UHGV virus genome: UHGV-0160150
Length of the DNA: 29,487 bases
Strand: one strand, 5' to 3'
From: a virus
The notes beneath the pieces were generated by a model. The model was not told where the DNA came from and searched no databases. It worked only from the letters and a program-made list of their open reading frames with translations. Each line of letters opens with the position of its first letter. Position 1 is the stretch's first letter. Made by a program: the position numbers and the translations under genes. Of this stretch, positions 3,129 through 19,174 are shown piece after piece.

Positions 3129-3261
3129 TTTTGGGAACTCCTGGCTGATTAAGTATGTCGATAAGGCGTTTCCATCCATCACGTAATTTACGTGTGATTC
3201 GTTCAAGTAAAGATTCGGAAGGGCAGCCAGCAACAGGCCACCCTGCAATGGCATATTGCAT
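3121..3261 (-). CDS. cIII: CIII-like protein (FtsH protease inhibitor, stabilises CII)
   Basis: 46 aa MQYAIAGWPVAGCPSESLLERITRKLRDGWKRLIDILNQPGVPKNG, matching lambda CIII as I recall it. Strong RBS AAGGAG 6 nt before ATG at 3261. Confidence 0.65.
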   Translation of the reverse strand: MQYAIAGWPVAGCPSESLLERITRKLRDGWKRLIDILNQPGVPKNG

Positions 3262-3287
3262 GGTGTGCTCCTTATTTATACATAACG

Positions 3288-3484: not shown

Positions 3485-3685
3485 TCAGGCAGCCTTGTTA
3501 TTCTGTTTACCAAGTTCTCTGGCAATCATTGCCGTCGTTCGTATTGCCCATTTATCGACATATTTCCCATCTTCCATTACAGGAAACATTTCTTCAGGCT
3601 TAACCATGCATTCCGATTGCAGCTTGCATCCATTGCATCGTTTGAATTGCCCACACCATTGATTTTTATCAATAGTCGTAGTCAT
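3485..3685 (-). CDS. ral: Small Cys-rich protein, Ral-like (restriction alleviation) candidate
   Basis: 66 aa MTTTIDKNQWCGQFKRCNGCKLQSEC... with four Cys in CX5CX2CX5C spacing. Size, position (between N side and cIII) and my recollection of lambda Ral fit; unverified. Confidence 0.45.
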   Translation of the reverse strand: MTTTIDKNQWCGQFKRCNGCKLQSECMVKPEEMFPVMEDGKYVDKWAIRTTAMIARELGKQNNKAA

Positions 3686-3755
3686 AAGGATAGTCCTGGT
3701 ATTGTTCCATCACATCCTGAGGATGCTCTTCGAACTCTTCAAATTCTTCTTCCAT
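3669..3755 (-). CDS. Tiny acidic ORF (28 aa), orf28-like position upstream of ral
   Basis: MEEEFEEFEEHPQDVMEQYQDYPYDYDY with GAGGTG RBS 5 nt before ATG at 3755. Overlaps the start of the ral-like gene in another frame. Below the ORF-track size cutoff; found by eye. Confidence 0.3.
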   Translation of the reverse strand: MEEEFEEFEEHPQDVMEQYQDYPYDYDY

Positions 3756-3936
3756 ATATCACCTCAAATAAGTGGTTTGCTGCCTAATTTCATTTTCTGG
3801 CGACCAACACAAGTCACACCCATTTCACTGCGTGGCTTGCGGTAGTAAAGATTGTGCCTGTCTTTTAACCACATCAGGCTCGGTGGTTCTCGTGTACCCC
3901 TACAGCGAGAAAAATAGTAAAATCCTCTTCACCCCC

Positions 3937-4299
3937 TTACTTTGTCAGGGGGATATCTCCTTCAGTTCTGACCATTCGCCTTAATACTTTCCTTAAGTCG
4001 ATGTAAAGTTGAATGTCTCCATTTGCTGCGGCATCAGCCATTTTTTGCCTGACAAGCAGTAATGTTTCATACGGCTCAATAAGAATATCGTCATGAGTAA
4101 TTAGGTGAAGCGTTGCCGCATCAACTATTCCTAGAGCTGCGCCAAGTATCAAAAATTCCCTGCTATTTTTGTCGCATGAGGAGATAAGCGTATTTAGCGC
4201 ATACCTAATATTCTTTATAGCTGTTGTTAATGCTGCAATTTCTTCTATGGCGTCTTCTTCAATGAGCTTTTTAAGCTCATATTTTTCTTCCTGACCCAT
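3937..4299 (-). CDS. Hypothetical AT-rich accessory protein (120 aa), immediately downstream of N
   Basis: Track ORF 3937..4383. Internal ATG at 4299 (MGQEEKYELKK) has GAGGT RBS and directly follows the N stop. No TM segment or recognised motif. AT-rich relative to neighbours. Confidence 0.55.
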   Translation of the reverse strand: MGQEEKYELKKLIEEDAIEEIAALTTAIKNIRYALNTLISSCDKNSREFLILGAALGIVDAATLHLITHDDILIEPYETLLLVRQKMADAAANGDIQLYIDLRKVLRRMVRTEGDIPLTK

Positions 4300-12637: not shown

Positions 12638-13280
12638 TGGCAGCAAATACCGAAATATTTGGGTAGTTGGCGATCTGCACGGATGCTACACGAACCTGAT
12701 GAAAAAACTGGAGACGATAGGATTCGACACCAAAAAAGACCTGCTTATCTCGGTGGGCGATTTGGTTGATCGCGGTACAGAGAACGTCGAATGCCTGGAA
12801 TTAATCACATTCCCCTGGTTCAGAGCTGTACGTGGAAACCATGAGCAAATGATGATTGATGGCTTATCAGAGCGTGGAAACGTCAATCACTGGCTGCTTA
12901 ATGGCGGTGGCTGGTTCTTTAATCTCGATTACGACAAAGAAATTCTGGCTAAAGCTCTTGCCCATAAAGCAGATGAACTTCCGTTAATCATCGAACTGGT
13001 GAGTAAAGGAAAAAAATATGTCATCTGCCACGCCGATTATCCTTGTGATAAATACGAGTTTGGAAAGCCAGTTGATCATCAGCAGGTAATCTGGAACCGC
13101 GAACGAATCAGCAACTCACAAGACGGGATCGTGAAAGAAATCAAAGGCGCGGACACGTTCATCTTTGGTCATACGCCAGCAGTGAAACCACTCAAGTTTG
13201 CCAACCAGATGTATATCGATACCGGCGCAGTGTTCTGCGGAAACCTCACATTGATTCAGGTACAGGGAGAAGGCGCATGA
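12615..13280 (+). CDS. ninI: NinI Ser/Thr protein phosphatase (calcineurin-like metallophosphatase)
   Basis: 221 aa from ATG at 12615 (MRYYERIDG). Metallophosphatase motifs GDLHG, GDLVDRG, GNHE. Size and sequence as lambda PPase. Confidence 0.9.
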
Positions 13281-13900
13281 GACTCGAAAGCGTAGCTAAA
13301 TTTCATTCGCCAAAAAGCCCGATGATGAGCGACTCACCACGGGCTACTGCTTCTGACTCTCTTTCCGGTACTGATGTGATGGCTGCTATGGGGATGGCGC
13401 AATCACAAGCCGGATTCGGAATGGCTGCATTCTGTGGTAAGCACGAACTCAGCCAGAATGACAAACAAAAGGCTATCAACTATCTGATGCAATTTGCACA
13501 CAAGGTATCGGGGAAATACCGTGGCGTGGCAAAGCTTGAAGGAAATACTAAGGCAAAGGTACTGCAAGTGCTCGCAACATTCGCTTATGCGGATTATTGC
13601 CGTAGTGCCGCTACGCCGGGCGCAAGATGCAGAGATTGCCACGGTACAGGCCGTGCGGTAGATATAGCAAAAACAGAGCAGTGGGGGAGAGTTGTTGAGA
13701 AAGAGTGCGGAAGATGCAAAGGCGTCGGCTATTCCAGGATGCCAGCAAGCGCCGCATATCGCGCTGTAACGATGCTAATCCCAAACCTTACCCAACCCAC
13801 CTGGTCACGCACTGTTAAGCCGCTGTATGACGCTCTGGTGGTGCAATGCCACAAAGAAGAGTCAATCGCAGACAACATTTTGAATGCGGTCACACGTTAG
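13277..13900 (+). CDS. Q: Late-gene antiterminator Q
   Basis: 207 aa, Cys-rich zinc-binding region (CRDCHGTG...CGRCKGVG). Followed by the pR' promoter, as for lambda Q. Confidence 0.9.
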
Positions 13901-14334: not shown

Positions 14335-14658
14335 ATGAAGATGCCAGAAAAAAATGACCTGTTAGCCGCCATTCTCGCGGCAAAGGAACAAGGCATCGGG
14401 GCAATCCTTGCGTTTGCAATGGCGTACCTTCGCGGCAGATATAATGGCGGTGCGTTTACAAAAACAGTAATCGACGCAACGATGTGCGCCATTATCGCCT
14501 GGTTCATTCGTGATCTTCTCGACCTCGCCGGACTAAGTAGCAATCTCGCTTATATAACGAGCGTGTTCATCGGCTACATCGGTACTGACTCGATTGGTTC
14601 GCTTATCAAACGCTTCGCTGCTAAAAAAGCCGGAGTAGAAGATGGTGGAAATCAATAA
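14335..14658 (+). CDS. S: Holin S (class I, dual-start holin/antiholin)
   Basis: 107 aa with MKM dual-start N-terminus and three TM segments; matches lambda S as recalled. Confidence 0.9.
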
Positions 14659-15118
14659 TCAACGTAAGGCGTTCCTCGATATGCTGGCGTGGTCAGAGGG
14701 AACTGATAACGGACGTCAGAAAACCAGAAATCATGGTTATGACGTCATTGTTGGCGGAGAGCTATTCACTGATTACTCCGATCACCCTCGCAAACTTGTC
14801 ACGCTAAACCCAAAACTCAAATCAACAGCAGCCGGACGTTACCAGCTTCTTTCCCGTTGGTGGGATGCCTATCGTAAGCAGCTTGGCCTGAAAGACTTCT
14901 CTCCGAAAAGCCAGGACGCTGTGGCACTGCAACAGATTAAAGAGCGTGGCGCTTTACCGATGATTGATCGCGGTGATATTCGTCAGGCTATCGACCGTTG
15001 CAGCAATATCTGGGCTTCACTGCCGGGCGCTGGTTATGGTCAGTTCGAGCATAAGGCTGACAGCCTGATTGCAAAATTCAAAGAAGCAGGCGGAACGGTC
15101 AGAGAGATTGAGGTATGA
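14642..15118 (+). CDS. R: Endolysin R (lytic transglycosylase)
   Basis: 158 aa; start overlaps the end of S as in lambda; sequence as lambda R. Confidence 0.9.
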
Positions 15119-15582
15119 GCAGAGTCACCGCGATTATCTCCGCTCTGGTTATCTGCATCATCGTCGGCCTGTCATGGGCTGTTAATCATTACCGTGATAA
15201 CGCCATCGCCTACAAAGAACAGCGTGATAAAAAAGTCAGTGAGCTGAAGCAGGCGACCGCCACCATTACTGACATGCAGCAACGCCAGCGTGCTGCTGAT
15301 GCACTCGATGCTAAATACACGAAGGAGTTAGCTGATGCGAAAGCTGAAAATGATGCTCTTCGGCGCAAGCTTGATAATGGTGGCAGGGTGCTCGTCAAAG
15401 GAAAATGCCCTGTGCCATCCTCAGCCGAAACCTCCAGCGCCTCCGGCATGGGCAATGATGCCACCGTCGAACTCTCTCCAGTTGCTGGACGAAACGTTCT
15501 CGGTGTCCGGGACGGAATTATCCGCGACCAAACAGCACTGAGAACGCTTCAGGAATACATCAGGACGCAATGCCTGAAATAA
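15115..15582 (+). CDS. Rz: Rz (inner-membrane spanin)
   Basis: 155 aa; N-terminal TM and coiled coil; ATGA overlap with the R stop. N-terminal half lambda-like, C-terminal half apparently divergent. Confidence 0.85.
15335..15541 (+). CDS. Rz1: Rz1 (outer-membrane lipoprotein spanin), embedded in Rz in another frame
   Basis: 68 aa with signal peptide and lipobox (LIMVAGC), proline-rich mature part; fully nested in Rz. Confidence 0.75.
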
Positions 15583-15615
15583 TTTTTTTTGCAAATCACA
15601 AAGTCCATTTAATGA

Positions 15616-15637
15616 GCCTCGCGATGCGGGGCTTTTT
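15616..15637 (+). terminator. Intrinsic terminator after the lysis cassette
   Basis: Hairpin GCCTCGC-GAT-GCGGGGC (one G-U pair) followed by TTTTT. Confidence 0.55.
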
Positions 15638-15644
15638 GCAATAA

Positions 15645-15669
15645 ATGCGTACCGCAACGCATGTTTTTT
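15645..15669 (+). terminator. Second, tandem intrinsic terminator
   Basis: Hairpin ATGCGT-ACCGCA-ACGCAT followed by GTTTTTTA. Confidence 0.5.
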
Positions 15670-15784
15670 ACACCGAACCTGCCCCTTTGGAATGGGCCTT
15701 TGAGGATACCAGTTAGTGCTGGCGAGCCTCGGTGGGCTGGTTTCCTATGCGGCAAAGGTTCATTTCAAATGGTAGGTAAACGTT

Positions 15785-16306
15785 ATGAATATCGTGCCAC
15801 TTAATTACAAAGGTGAAATTGTCAGTTTCAACACTGATGGTTGGATCAACGTCACAGGTGTTGCTGAGAGATTTGGGAAACGCATTGATAACTGGATGCG
15901 TTTGGCAGAAACGCTTGAATACGTTCGTGCTTTAGACGAAGCGTTGACCGGGAAAGAATCTGAAATTTTACATCCCTCACAATCGAGGTATGTAAAAACC
16001 AGCAAGGCACGAAAGGACAGGGGTGGTGGTACGTGGCTACATCCAAAACTTTCAGTTGCATTTGCCCGTTGGTGTGATGCTCGTTTTGCTGTGTGGTGCG
16101 ACCTGCACATTGATAGTCTGCTTCGCGGTGAACTGACTGAGCAGCAGAAATATGAGCAAGCATGTCGCATTCGCGATGACCGGAAATCAAAAGCCAGCAA
16201 TGGGGCAAGAGAGATGGCTCGCTGGCGATGGGATAAGCCGGTTATTGAAGCAAATGTTGAGTACTGGCGCGAGCAACTGCAGTTGACTCTCGATATCGCG
16301 TGCTGA
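15785..16306 (+). CDS. KilA-N domain protein
   Basis: 173 aa; KilA-N-type pattern (GWINVTGVAERFGK...GGGTWLHPKLSVAFARWCDARFAVWCD). Lies between the lysis cassette and the packaging genes. Confidence 0.65.
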   Translation: MNIVPLNYKGEIVSFNTDGWINVTGVAERFGKRIDNWMRLAETLEYVRALDEALTGKESEILHPSQSRYVKTSKARKDRGGGTWLHPKLSVAFARWCDARFAVWCDLHIDSLLRGELTEQQKYEQACRIRDDRKSKASNGAREMARWRWDKPVIEANVEYWREQLQLTLDIAC

Positions 16307-16595
16307 TGGCAAACGCAAAACTGCGTTATCGGAAAAATCAAAGCATTACGAGAACTGAGCAACGGCTATCCATTACAAAGCCCATCTACGGGTGGGCTTG
16401 ATAATGAAACCGGAGTTAATTTCTGGTCACTAATTAACGGCAGTACAGCGAAACAACCCAAGCCAGAAAGTGGGGAAATAACACTGGCAGCCACTGAAAG
16501 ATGAACCTCCTGCCTTATGGCAAAAAAGATTCTTTGTGGTGGCGGACTGATGGAAAGACATCCTAATCAAGCAACCACTCCACAGGGTCATAATT

Positions 16596-16976
16596 ATGAA
16601 CGACCAGCAAATCGAAAAAGAAATCGTTGAGAAAGGCAAAACCGCTCCGCGAGTTACCCCGCAGCACATCGAAGACGTGATTAAAAGCGAGCATTACTTT
16701 ACTGCTTATGATGGACGAAATGGTGCCATTTCCAGCAACGAATATTGTGGCAGGGAAAAACCAGAAGAAGGCGATCGTGATTTATCACCATTGAAGTTGC
16801 TCACTTTCTGCGTACTGGTGCTGAAGAATGGCTTCACCGTCACCGGAGAGAGTGCCTGTGCAAGCCCGGAAAACTTTGATGCAGAAATTGGTCGGAAGAT
16901 TGCCCGGCAGAATGCTGTAAACAAAATCTGGATGCTTGAAGGTTACTTGCTGAAGCAGAAGCTAAGCGAACAGTAG
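16596..16976 (+). CDS. Hypothetical phage protein, possibly Gp49/Sf6 gp66-like family
   Basis: 126-aa ORF upstream of the terminase genes; family assignment is tentative, from context and memory. Confidence 0.4.
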   Translation: MNDQQIEKEIVEKGKTAPRVTPQHIEDVIKSEHYFTAYDGRNGAISSNEYCGREKPEEGDRDLSPLKLLTFCVLVLKNGFTVTGESACASPENFDAEIGRKIARQNAVNKIWMLEGYLLKQKLSEQ

Positions 16977-17076
16977 TTATTACAAAAGCCATTCAATGAG
17001 TGGTCTCGACAATGGCTTATACCCTACACGGGATAACTTAACTGATATCCCTTTTAACGGATAAACGGAGCCAACA

Positions 17077-17319
17077 ATGGCAGAGATTATTCCCATGACT
17101 GAAGAACAGAAATTCCAGTTAGAGATTTACAAACTGGTCATGAACCAGAACGCAGCCGCAGAAGAAGCATTTCAATTCATTGGCACTGACGAACTGAAGC
17201 TTGAGCTATTCAAAATTCACTTCCAGTCAGGCGGCGCTAATTCGGATATCACGACCCGCACTATCGAAGCGGTGCGTAAATCGAAGGAAGCGTTAGACCT
17301 GTTCACTACCGGAGCATAA
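17077..17319 (+). CDS. Hypothetical small protein (80 aa)
   Basis: ORF immediately upstream of the small terminase subunit. Confidence 0.5.
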   Translation: MAEIIPMTEEQKFQLEIYKLVMNQNAAAEEAFQFIGTDELKLELFKIHFQSGGANSDITTRTIEAVRKSKEALDLFTTGA

Positions 17320-17321
17320 AC

Positions 17322-17762
17322 ATGGCACGCCCAACAAAGTATCAAGAGGCGTATGCCGAACAGGCACGCAAACTGTGCTTGCTGGGCTACACCGATGCAG
17401 AACTTGCTGATTTCTTTGAAGTCAGTGAGTCAACTATTAACAAGTGGAAGCTTGATTATCCTAAGTTTTCGGAGTCCATAAAAAAGGGTAAGGCCGTCGC
17501 TGATGCAGAAGTTAGTGATCGTCTTTATCAACGCGCTATGGGCTTCGTGGCTCCAGACATCGATATTCGTGTTATTGAAAATAGAATTGTCGAAACTCCG
17601 CTTGAGAAGTATTACCCGCCTGATACAACCGCCGCCATCTTCTGGCTTAAGAACCGACAGAAGGATAAATGGCGCGACAAGGTTGATCACGAGCTAACAG
17701 GCAAAGACGGCGGCGCAATTCAGATTGAAACATCACCGATGAGCACTCTATTCGGAAAATGA
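17322..17762 (+). CDS. Terminase small subunit
   Basis: 146 aa with HTH-like segment (YTDAELADFFEVSESTINKWK); its stop overlaps the large-subunit start (ATGA). Confidence 0.7.
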   Translation: MARPTKYQEAYAEQARKLCLLGYTDAELADFFEVSESTINKWKLDYPKFSESIKKGKAVADAEVSDRLYQRAMGFVAPDIDIRVIENRIVETPLEKYYPPDTTAAIFWLKNRQKDKWRDKVDHELTGKDGGAIQIETSPMSTLFGK

Positions 17763-19174
17763 CCTCGATTAATCCTATCTTTGAACCGTTCATTGAGGCG
17801 CATCGCTATAAAGTCGCCAAAGGCGGTCGAGGTAGCGGTAAGTCATGGGCAATCGCGAGGCTGCTTGTTGAAGCGGCGCGTCGGCAGCCGGTGCGTATTC
17901 TCTGCGCTCGTGAACTGCAAAACAGTATCAGCGATTCGGTAATTCGGTTGCTTGAAGACACCATAGAGCGGGAAGGGTATTCGGCTGAGTTTGAAATTCA
18001 GCGTTCAATGATTCGTCATCTCGGAACGAATGCTGAGTTCATGTTCTACGGCATCAAAAACAACCCGACGAAGATTAAATCGCTCGAAGGCATTGATATC
18101 TGCTGGGTGGAGGAAGCGGAAGCGGTAACGAAGGAATCATGGGATATCCTGATACCAACCATCCGTAAGCCGTTCTCTGAAATATGGGTGAGCTTTAACC
18201 CGAAGAACATACTCGACGATACCTATCAGCGATTCGTTGTAAATCCTCCCGATGATATTTGCCTGCTGACGGTGAACTACACCGACAACCCGCACTTTCC
18301 TGAAGTTCTCCGTCTGGAGATGGAAGAGTGTAAACGCAGAAATCCGACACTATATCGTCACATCTGGCTTGGTGAGCCAGTGAGCGCAAGTGATATGGCA
18401 ATCATCAAACGTGAATGGCTTGAAGCCGCAACCGATGCGCACAAGAAACTCGGATGGAAAGCGAAAGGCGCTGTTGTCTCTGCGCATGACCCGTCAGATA
18501 CAGGACCGGATGCTAAAGGTTATGCATCGCGCCACGGTTCGGTAGTTAAACGCATTGCCGAAGGCCTGCTGATGGACATCAACGAGGGTGCTGACTGGGC
18601 TACTTCGCTGGCGATTGAAGACGGCGCTGACCATTACCTGTGGGATGGTGATGGTGTTGGTGCCGGGCTACGCAGACAGACAACGGAAGCGTTCTCCGGC
18701 AAGAAAATCACCGCCACGATGTTCAAGGGCAGTGAATCGCCATTCGATGAAGATGCGCCGTATCAGGCCGGAGCATGGGCTGATGAAGTCGTACAGGGTG
18801 ACAACGTTCGCACTATTGGCGATGTGTTCCGCAATAAGCGAGCACAATTCTATTACGCGCTGGCTGACAGGCTGTATCTGACATATCGGGCGGTTGTTCA
18901 CGGTGAGTATGCAGACCCAGACGACATGCTGAGTTTCGACAAAGAAGCGATAGGCGAGAAGATGCTGGAGAAGCTGTTTGCAGAACTGACGCAGATTCAG
19001 CGCAAATTCAATAACAACGGGAAGCTGGAGCTTATGACCAAGGTCGAAATGAAGCAGAAGCTCGGTATTCCATCTCCTAACCTGGCTGATGCGCTGATGA
19101 TGTGTATGCATTGCCCGGAGTCGGCTGCGAAACCCGACTATTCCAGTTACTCAATTCCTTGTGGTGTAGGTTGA
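17759..19174 (+). CDS. Terminase large subunit (ATPase/nuclease)
   Basis: 471 aa; N-terminal Walker A (VAKGGRGSGKSWA); Walker B-like ICWVEEAE. Confidence 0.9.
   Translation: MTSINPIFEPFIEAHRYKVAKGGRGSGKSWAIARLLVEAARRQPVRILCARELQNSISDSVIRLLEDTIEREGYSAEFEIQRSMIRHLGTNAEFMFYGIKNNPTKIKSLEGIDICWVEEAEAVTKESWDILIPTIRKPFSEIWVSFNPKNILDDTYQRFVVNPPDDICLLTVNYTDNPHFPEVLRLEMEECKRRNPTLYRHIWLGEPVSASDMAIIKREWLEAATDAHKKLGWKAKGAVVSAHDPSDTGPDAKGYASRHGSVVKRIAEGLLMDINEGADWATSLAIEDGADHYLWDGDGVGAGLRRQTTEAFSGKKITATMFKGSESPFDEDAPYQAGAWADEVVQGDNVRTIGDVFRNKRAQFYYALADRLYLTYRAVVHGEYADPDDMLSFDKEAIGEKMLEKLFAELTQIQRKFNNNGKLELMTKVEMKQKLGIPSPNLADALMMCMHCPESAAKPDYSSYSIPCGVG

Follow-up and report, generated by a model that had tools for sequence, protein, structure and literature searches.

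In the virus genome UHGV-0160150, analysed here as one stretch of 29,487 nucleotides (nt) that we call the window, a gene for a KilA-N protein of 173 amino acids (aa) lies between the lysis cassette and the packaging genes (15785-16306, plus strand). The locus raises the question of how such a gene is controlled. The original prediction took it for self-expressed cargo (a moron) placed behind tandem terminators. That reading missed what tells most about the locus: the stretches between its genes are conserved, structured RNA. Immediately before the gene we found a structured leader RNA (15671-15784, plus strand) with two conserved, covarying folds, one of which pairs the Shine-Dalgarno (SD) sequence of the KilA-N gene.

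A conserved leader hairpin pairs the Shine-Dalgarno sequence

The 208 nt following the spanin gene Rz fold better than their shuffles (z −3.7). From folds, hand-derived pairs, two covariance models (R1 and R2) and pair counts, we defined a long hairpin at 15677-15777, on the plus strand like all the leader elements given here, and termed it the OFF hairpin. At its base, helix P0 pairs an anti-SD strand (15677-15683) with the SD (15771-15777). Above it lie P1/P2 (15686-15702 with 15753-15769), a bulge on the 3′ side (15747-15752), P3 (15703-15712 with 15737-15746) and P4 (15718-15720 with 15725-15727), the latter closed by a GGCG loop. The SD core AGGU (15774-15777) is located 7 nt before the ATG at 15785 and is paired in this fold. 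When 17 diverged leaders were folded singly, a common architecture emerged: the two hairpins T1 and HP2, described below, are followed by a hairpin of ∼100 nt, in which a basal stem of the CCUUU type pairs with an AAAGG/AGGU Shine-Dalgarno sequence and is topped by a 6–7-nt 3′ bulge, an upper stem and an apical hairpin with the GGCG loop.

On plain MAFFT alignments, whether of the entire leader or of its 5′ domain, RNAalifold yielded almost nothing, as the arms slip out of register. We therefore used single-sequence folds, covariance-model alignments and register-free tests instead. The first covariance model, made from near-identical seeds and the hand-derived structure, recovered 22 distinct leaders (alignment A5). 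In this alignment, 89.9% of the cells were paired, compared with 31–49% when the partners were slid, and 27 of the 36 pairs were compensatory. The second model, R2, with which the leader of HK97 gp73 was found, was used to scan 79 genome loci encoding relatives of the KilA-N protein. Among these loci, the gene was directly preceded by the leader in Enterobacter, Pantoea, Providencia, Xenorhabdus and Zymobacter, and also in Halomonas, Halopseudomonas, Cobetia, Vreelandella and Salinicola; the leader model had no match in the phages D3 and PS-1 or in most of the Pseudomonas prophage loci. With the Halomonadaceae included (alignment A8), 90.6% of the cells were paired against 32–48% with slid partners, compensatory pairs rose to 32 of 36, and none of 500 shuffles reached the observed value on any of five measures.

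Next, we asked which strand carries the structure. The covariance model scored only ∼15 bits on the minus strand but >100 bits on the plus strand, and many of the pairs are G·U; both observations place the structure in the plus-strand RNA. They also bear on the idea that the inverted repeats act as DNA, either as a recombination or homing target or as a protein-binding palindrome. Such a role would fit the mosaic junctions that fall exactly at the 3′ end of the leader (P22 versus the window) and the HNH homing-endonuclease genes fused behind some leader copies. However, the G·U pairs become A·C mismatches on the other strand, and the compensatory changes keep the pairing rather than the sequence of a half-site. 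Together with the difference in score between the strands, this makes a DNA-level function extremely improbable.

To quantify the sequestration of the SD, we took the predicted paired probability of the SD core. It was 0.99 for the window leader and had a median of 0.97 across the leaders, which are not independent of each other, compared with 0.67 in 22 further genes of the window. A cruder measure of accessibility of the SD region did not separate the leaders from the controls, whereas the SD-core measure did.

Searches of Rfam 15 with the whole window returned only the lambda cIII thermoregulator at the gathering score. For the region 15400-17100, with E-values up to 5 allowed, only chance-level matches appeared (the rimP leader at 20 bits and a long non-coding RNA), and there was no isrK, c4, ribozyme or riboswitch among them. 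The existence of the leader as an RNA family absent from Rfam is well supported, and so is the OFF structure. Although uncatalogued, this leader is very common. The window-type version is present in 954 of 5426 complete Escherichia coli genomes (18%), where it is unannotated or lies under over-long Rha coding sequences, and leaders are carried by P22, HK97, HK620, ES18 and many Shiga toxin (Stx) phages. A 47-aa open reading frame (ORF) over the leader was rejected as a gene, its start being within the lineage-specific U-run region of HP2.

Helix S1 defines an alternative fold

In the broad alignment, 6–8 nt just 5′ of the OFF hairpin are complementary to the apical junction that precedes the 3′ strand of helix P3b. 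In the window, this helix, S1, consists of CACCGA (15671-15676), which abuts the anti-SD strand, and UCGGUG (15729-15734) in the apical junction, after which come GG and the P3b 3′ strand (all plus strand). The two strands change in step among the lineages: CGUCGAA pairs with UUCGACG in Providencia, CGAGAG with CUCUCG in HK639 and HK620, CCCGAG with CUCGGG in L073, GCAUAGAG with CUCUAUGC in L054, CCGUAGAG with CUCUACGG in Halomonas and CCAAGAGC with GCUCUUGG in HK97.

We measured this complementarity by a register-free test. In 32 of 36 distinct leaders, S1 occupies one and the same position as a contiguous Watson–Crick duplex of at least 6 bp (median 7 bp), and it occurs in at least 12 different sequence versions. 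Duplexes of at least 6 bp were formed by 89% of the leaders' own pairs of 5′ flank and apical junction, compared with 11% of the pairs combined across lineages. These register-free and cross-lineage tests replaced an earlier one anchored on the base of the minimum-free-energy hairpin, which failed as that base was called inconsistently. In a structure-fitted alignment S1 was 97.6% paired against 24–54% for slid partners, and as many as four pair types occurred at a position.

The 5′ domain (46–65 nt), when isolated and folded without constraints, formed S1 as its closing helix in all 17 of the 17 lineages. S1 encloses two hairpins, Ha, in which the anti-SD CUUUCAG pairs with a conserved CUGAGA, and Hb. 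The three-way junction made by S1, Ha and Hb has invariant GGCGA and GGGC nucleotides. From these results, we regard helix S1 as well supported.

Can S1 and the base of the OFF hairpin form together? The linkers are 0 nt between S1 and P0 and 0–2 nt between S1 and P3b, while the hairpin stem is ∼33 bp long. On geometric grounds, these lengths should make S1 incompatible with P0 and the lower part of P1, that is, with the base that sequesters the SD. The leader has two conserved folds, both of which covary, and the SD is paired in the OFF fold; their mutual exclusion is what the linker lengths imply.

A proposed translational gate

The leader hairpin has already been encountered as an RNA. A June 2026 study of small RNAs during P22 infection (Noncoding RNA 2026;12:21, PMC13397905) lists two RNAs, P22F and P22G, with 'no known function'. 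P22F (89 nt) was seen there by read coverage and by reverse transcription PCR in infected cells, and also in vesicles. We found that the P22F sequence is the leader hairpin, equivalent to ∼15691-15779 of the window, and that it ends 6 nt before the rha AUG. The study speculates about an IsrK-like role for P22F and P22G, and in the sections that we read it deals with neither an RNA family, covariation, SD sequestration nor the S1 fold. P22F shows that the leader hairpin RNA exists and is stable in vivo, which does not by itself establish a mechanism, and the folds described above offer a structural rationale for an RNA reported without a function.

We propose the following scheme. The KilA-N gene would have no promoter of its own and would be read by the Q-modified, terminator-resistant polymerase. 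T1, helped in this lineage by HP2 with its U-run, would stop the unmodified polymerase, so that the gene would be silent in the lysogen. In the OFF state, the ∼100-nt hairpin would pair the anti-SD (ACCU/CCUUU) with the SD. In the ON state, the 6–8 nt located 5′ of the hairpin would pair with the apical junction and S1 would close the three-way-junction domain, which would tie up the anti-SD strand and leave the SD free. The 5′ domain would be transcribed first and then be displaced by the long hairpin unless it is stabilised. As this domain comes first but the hairpin is more stable by 12–20 kcal/mol, either a short window of co-transcriptional translation or a stabilising factor would be needed. 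In both cases, little of a potentially harmful DNA-binding protein would be made. We give a slightly better than even chance to the leader being a translational gate or switch that limits a DNA-binding protein of the 'Bro network' (see below).

Several points weigh against this scheme. The OFF fold exceeds the alternative in stability by a wide margin (−38 to −53 versus −23 to −37 kcal/mol), and S1 might be a transient folding intermediate only. Ha and Hb do not have compensatory changes of their own, and a column-based test of S1 on the unfitted MAFFT alignment gave no clear signal owing to register slips. Covariance-model alignments are biased towards the modelled structure, and the sequences are related by phylogeny. 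Pairing of the SD is weaker at recombinant junctions (0.72 in P22, 0.75 in ES18 and 0.49 in Meifeng). A simple switch does not predict the reported ends of P22F, the 5′ end being inside P1 and the 3′ end between the SD and the AUG; these could come from a processing event that removes the SD. Weaker, sub-threshold promoters may also have passed unnoticed in the consensus scan described below. For this phage, we infer both the late-only transcription and the translational effect, as well as the trigger and the protein target.

In another explanation, the leader does not switch: it would be a stable element for processing or for RNA stability, or else give rise to P22F as a trans-acting small RNA cut from the late transcript, and S1 would be a co-transcriptional folding guide or a nuclease determinant only. 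The accumulation of an 89-nt RNA equal to the hairpin in P22-infected cells and vesicles is in line with this, and so is the 3′ end of P22F, as an mRNA cut at that place, between the SD and the AUG, would be inactivated and not switched. The high stability of the OFF hairpin fits too. Long near-perfect stems of this kind resemble RNase III substrates. However, the arrangement of SD, anti-SD and anti-anti-SD is conserved even where the downstream genes are different, and the element always lies immediately before a start codon, the Halomonadaceae included. Neither did we observe significant complementarity of the leader to the 3′ block, the 3′ untranslated region (UTR) or other parts of the window. 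We consider this explanation unlikely, and prefer the translational gate.

The gate resembles known systems in part. In IsrK–orf45–anrP of Gifsy-1, as is proposed for the leader, an RNA element before a small ORF/antirepressor-type gene of a prophage decides whether an mRNA that is not translated turns active (PMC12197685). The two differ in that IsrK exerts its effect in trans, on a longer isoform, and that the leader has no homology to IsrK in sequence or structure (Rfam, which should include the isrK model, gave no match at E up to 5). Translational riboswitch platforms and the rpoS-type inhibitory leader share the logic of SD, anti-SD and anti-anti-SD with our leader; in riboswitch platforms too, a 5′ junction domain with a closing helix competes with the SD-sequestering stem. 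Unlike these platforms, the leader has an OFF state much more stable than the ON state, belongs to no Rfam family and came with no candidate for a ligand, small RNA or protein trigger.

It is conceivable, but distinctly unlikely in our estimation, that the 5′ three-way-junction domain is a true sensor, that is, a metabolite aptamer or the binding site of a protein, from host or phage, that signals the state of the cell. If so, it would represent a new riboswitch-like class that licenses late translation of Bro-network DNA-binding proteins and HNH endonucleases from Enterobacterales to Oceanospirillales, and it could explain the 30-year-old observation that Rha is harmful only in hosts deficient for the integration host factor (IHF). 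For the function and regulation of Rha/KilA-type proteins, a question dating from the 1980s–90s, the two covarying, exclusive folds provide a model of how these proteins may be restrained in lambdoid phages, a model that can be tested by mutations.

The leader serves different genes in the rha slot

Is the leader specific to the KilA-N gene? A gene directly after Rz/Rz1, co-oriented with the late genes, is found in the window, P22, ES18, HK620, HK97, HK544 and Stx phage 2851; this is the rha slot. The P22 rha/phi80 Rha locus has the same position after Rz/Rz1 and before the small-terminase region, and the same order of T1, HP2 and leader, as the window. Upstream of P22 rha (ORF201) the leader is 98% identical over 15671-15769 and scores 115 bits with the covariance model. 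The two phages are near-identical in the leader up to the SD, after which the P22 sequence changes to rha. A search with the leader alone retrieved 75 phage records, and its diverged version retrieved 146. Covariance-model matches precede ES18 gp79 (Rha-like), HK620 hkbK, Stx phage 2851 kilA and HK639 rha, and also Hafnia Meifeng rha, HK97 gp73 and HNH genes in RothC and L065.

The products of two of these genes, P22 rha and Stx kilA, are related at their C-termini. P22 Rha, when read from its ATG (see below), consists of Phage_pRha and ORF11CD3 domains, and Stx KilA consists of KilA-N and ORF11CD3. The N-terminal domain of the window protein is KilA-N where that of P22 Rha is Phage_pRha, and its match to ORF11CD3 is below the Pfam cut-off, unlike that of P22 Rha. 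From the shared leader and slot, we conclude that the KilA-N gene of the window is one allele of the rha slot, ordinary and interchangeable, in a lambda/P22-type late operon where this slot is classical. P22 and the window both have a P22G-like block downstream, whereas the 3′-UTR hairpins A and C described below accompany the window gene only and are absent from P22. The literature places rha among the late-operon genes and describes its product as harmful to lytic growth when IHF is missing (PMC4936722, citing Henthorn & Friedman 1995).

In P22, the GTG that is annotated as the start of ORF201 falls within the leader hairpin (L084, NC_002371, 1276-1345). Judging from the sequence, the true start of P22 rha is likely to be the ATG 66 nt downstream of the GTG, which follows a GAAGG Shine-Dalgarno sequence and would give MNELIANHDF. 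Many RefSeq coding sequences for a 'Rha family transcriptional regulator' in E. coli (H303-H315) likewise overlap the leader and are probably over-extended. A covariance model of the leader would correct the start codons of rha-type genes and mark the rha slot in prophage annotation.

Extra copies of the leader are fused to HNH homing-endonuclease ORFs. In L065 the leader is at 3611-3724 and the ORF at 3684-4262; in the Klebsiella phage RothC (L089) they are at 1493-1606 and 1565-2104, the leader copy being located upstream of the holin gene and after the Q gene and two tRNAs. These fusions mean either that the leader is a portable control cassette or that its conserved DNA is a homing target.

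A perfect match to the IHF consensus, WATCAANNNNTTR, occurs once in the 29.5-kb window, at 16336-16348 (plus strand) within the KilA-N 3′ UTR. A single match is at the chance level (1.5 expected), and the site is not kept among the more distant homologues. The position is a curious one in view of the IHF-dependent Rha phenotype.

The KilA-N protein belongs to the Bro network

The KilA-N gene itself is routine. Its product matches the KilA-N domain (PF04383) with an E-value of 8.5e-22 and 77.5 bits, far above the Pfam cut-off of 23.8, and so its identification as a KilA-N DNA-binding-type protein of 173 aa held good. The domain covers aa 7-114 (nt 15803-16126, plus strand). It is followed by an ORF11CD3-like helical hairpin at aa ∼116-169 (nt ∼16130-16291, plus strand). 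Here the match to ORF11CD3 (PF10549; residues 122-169) reaches 16.2 bits with E 0.013, against a cut-off of 25. Close homologues of the protein carry precomputed assignments to both PF10549 and PF04383. In the AlphaFold2 model (pLDDT 88.8), an alpha/beta domain at the N-terminus is followed by a two-helix hairpin at the C-terminus (residues 116-169). The best fold neighbours of this model in the Protein Data Bank (PDB) are the APSES domains of Mbp1 and PCG2; these matches are not significant (E 0.17–0.18), though in the predicted model they fit the known relationship between APSES and KilA-N. A sequence search of the PDB with the protein gave no match.

Orf11 of Pseudomonas phage D3 is a full-length homologue (45% identity over aa 2-171) with the same architecture of KilA-N and ORF11CD3. 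Proteins of this kind form a domain-swapping 'Bro network' (Iyer et al. 2002; PMC10111431), to which both D3 Orf11 and the window protein belong. D3 (L092, 1492-1992) and PS-1 (L093, 1495-2079) have their KilA-N plus ORF11CD3 homologue behind a gap of 115–170 nt inside the head-gene cluster, unlike the post-Rz site of the window, and the leader model has no match there.

KilA-N domains are also present in the prophage defence protein BstA (PMC8585504). We rejected a BstA-type defence protein for the window gene: PADLOC reported no match to a BstA model, and the 173-aa protein has a different C-terminus. The only PADLOC match was to PDC-S22, a candidate family, at 22.5 bits over residues 11-50.

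Upstream hairpins and the moron explanation

An intrinsic terminator is expected to be a GC-rich hairpin directly followed by a U-run, and both hairpins between Rz and the leader have this form, with U5 in T1 and with G and then U6 in HP2. T1 with its U-run spans 15614-15637 (plus strand; GAGCCUCGC-GAU-GCGGGGCUU). Its hairpin (15614-15634) has a 9-bp GC-rich stem running into the U5 (ΔG −14.4 kcal/mol, z −3.3), the stem covaries among the homologues, and the records of HK544, Emek, ES18 and HK639 label the equivalent element a rho-independent terminator. HP2 (15645-15669, plus strand) is weaker. Its hairpin at 15645-15662 has a 6-bp stem and a 6-nt loop (AUGCGU-ACCGCA-ACGCAU; ΔG −6.9, z −1.8), and together with the following G and U6 it was detected by a terminator scan. 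This U-run is confined to the lineage of the window. Most relatives keep HP2 without it, and it is this U-less form that stands alongside the leader in P22, ES18, HK620, HK639, Meifeng and RothC, which argues that HP2 is not primarily a terminator. The suggestion of tandem terminators is thus right for this phage, where T1 is strong and HP2 weak but present, and does not extend to the family.

Do these elements insulate an autonomous gene? As a moron, the KilA-N gene would have its own promoter, be insulated by terminators, be expressed from the prophage and confer a host phenotype such as exclusion or toxicity. Upstream terminators would indeed provide insulation, the gene lies in a mosaic hotspot on a module with sharp boundaries, and the KilA-N domains of BstA set a precedent for prophage defence. 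Lambdoid morons, such as lambda bor and lom or the HK97 gp15 type, likewise are non-essential genes between modules of the late operon with a mosaic distribution. However, morons are defined by their own promoter, terminator and prophage expression. The promoter search that the original prediction had called for, a consensus scan of the plus strand between Rz and the ORF (15583-15784), detected no sigma-70-like site. Upstream the flank consists of terminators and a leader that occludes the SD and would block translation; directly 3′ of the gene there is no intrinsic terminator, as the hairpin found there, hairpin C, has no U-tract. The GC content of the locus is unremarkable, and the PADLOC result was confined to one weak match to a candidate family. 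Moreover, the same leader serves P22 rha, which the literature places in the late operon. Expression as self-contained cargo is very unlikely on this evidence, and we retain the reading of a late-operon allele of the rha slot under a proposed translational gate.

Conserved elements downstream of the gene

The interval between the KilA-N gene and the next gene (16307-16595) measures 289 bp, in agreement with the ∼290 bp originally given. A coupled ORF of 31 aa had been proposed in this gap. Such an ORF exists (16306-16401, plus strand), and its ATG at 16306 overlaps the TGA stop of the KilA-N gene. It is interrupted by nonsense or frameshift changes in four near-identical contexts (L003, L022, L046 and L083), cut to 14 aa in L052-L054 and absent from 13 of 41 distinct contexts. 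In all, it is broken or absent in 20 of the 41 and intact only in near-identical copies, whereas the underlying RNA hairpins are kept regardless. We conclude that it is not conserved and not a gene.

Within the 3′ UTR, structure is strong over the first 100 nt (z −4.2). Hairpin A (AACGCA-AAAC-UGCGUU; 16312-16327, plus strand) has a ΔG of −6.4 and a z of −4.1, and a hairpin at this place is kept in the diverged homologues. Hairpin C, an extended stem-loop (16371-16406, plus strand), is more stable (ΔG −20.6, z −5.6). In a plain MAFFT alignment, 98.7% of its cells were paired, compared with 32–55% for slid partners, and 8 of 14 pairs were compensatory; its U·G pairs indicate a structure of the plus-strand RNA. 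In all lineages it is followed by GAUAAUGA and no U-tract. Hairpin C forms the right end of the minimal KilA-N module and coincides with the breakpoint at 16406/16412. Most simply, it may be a 3′ stabiliser of the kilA message or a barrier to its processing.

Between hairpins A and C, the diverged homologues L052-L071 have a further hairpin, GAGAGCC-ACUUUCACAAC-GGCUCUC, whose 7-bp stem carries an 11-nt loop that is invariant, ∼40–65 nt after the KilA-N stop. The version in the window (16350-16372) is degenerate and largely deleted.

Beyond hairpin C lies a near-invariant non-coding block of ∼135 nt (16428-16562, plus strand), whose homologue is contained in the P22G RNA of the P22 small-RNA report (PMC13397905). 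The block is 93–99% identical in >160 phage records, including HK97, P22, HK620, ST64T, epsilon34 and BTP1. Its right boundary, after GACATC, is razor-sharp, and three alternative right flanks follow. The block has no surviving ORF on either strand, is not notably structured and has no Rfam match. A 43-aa minus-strand ORF within it was rejected as a gene.

Neighbouring genes and the mosaic module

The ORF list together with Pfam shows that the window is a lambdoid, P22/Sf6-like phage. In its late region, Q (13277-13900) is followed by genes for a holin (14335-14658) and an endolysin (14642-15118). The lysis cassette ends with the Rz spanin gene (15115-15582, plus strand; Pfam Phage_lysis, E 3.4e-29), in which the ORF list places an embedded Rz1 ORF (15335-15541, plus strand). 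Beyond the KilA-N gene, identified by Pfam, and the adjoining gap come a gene of the Gp49/Sf6-gp66 family (PF13876; 16596-16976, plus strand), a DUF2560 gene (17077-17319), and the small (17322-17762) and large (17759-19174) terminase genes.

The view of the interval between lysis and packaging genes as a mosaic hotspot was borne out by recurrent megablast breakpoints, located at 15547, 16406/16412 and 16562/16567. The module 15547-16562 is mobile at ∼98% identity and was found by megablast in HK544, Emek and ev099, which differ in virion type, and in 44 complete E. coli genomes.

The Gp49/Sf6-gp66 gene (16596-16976) is labelled 'anti-CRISPR protein' in Escherichia phage Huey (PQ850609). Besides the leader, the window has a further RNA regulatory element, the lambda cIII thermoregulator (RF01804), found at 3216-3274 on the minus strand with 88.5 bits; its presence confirms a lambdoid early-left region.

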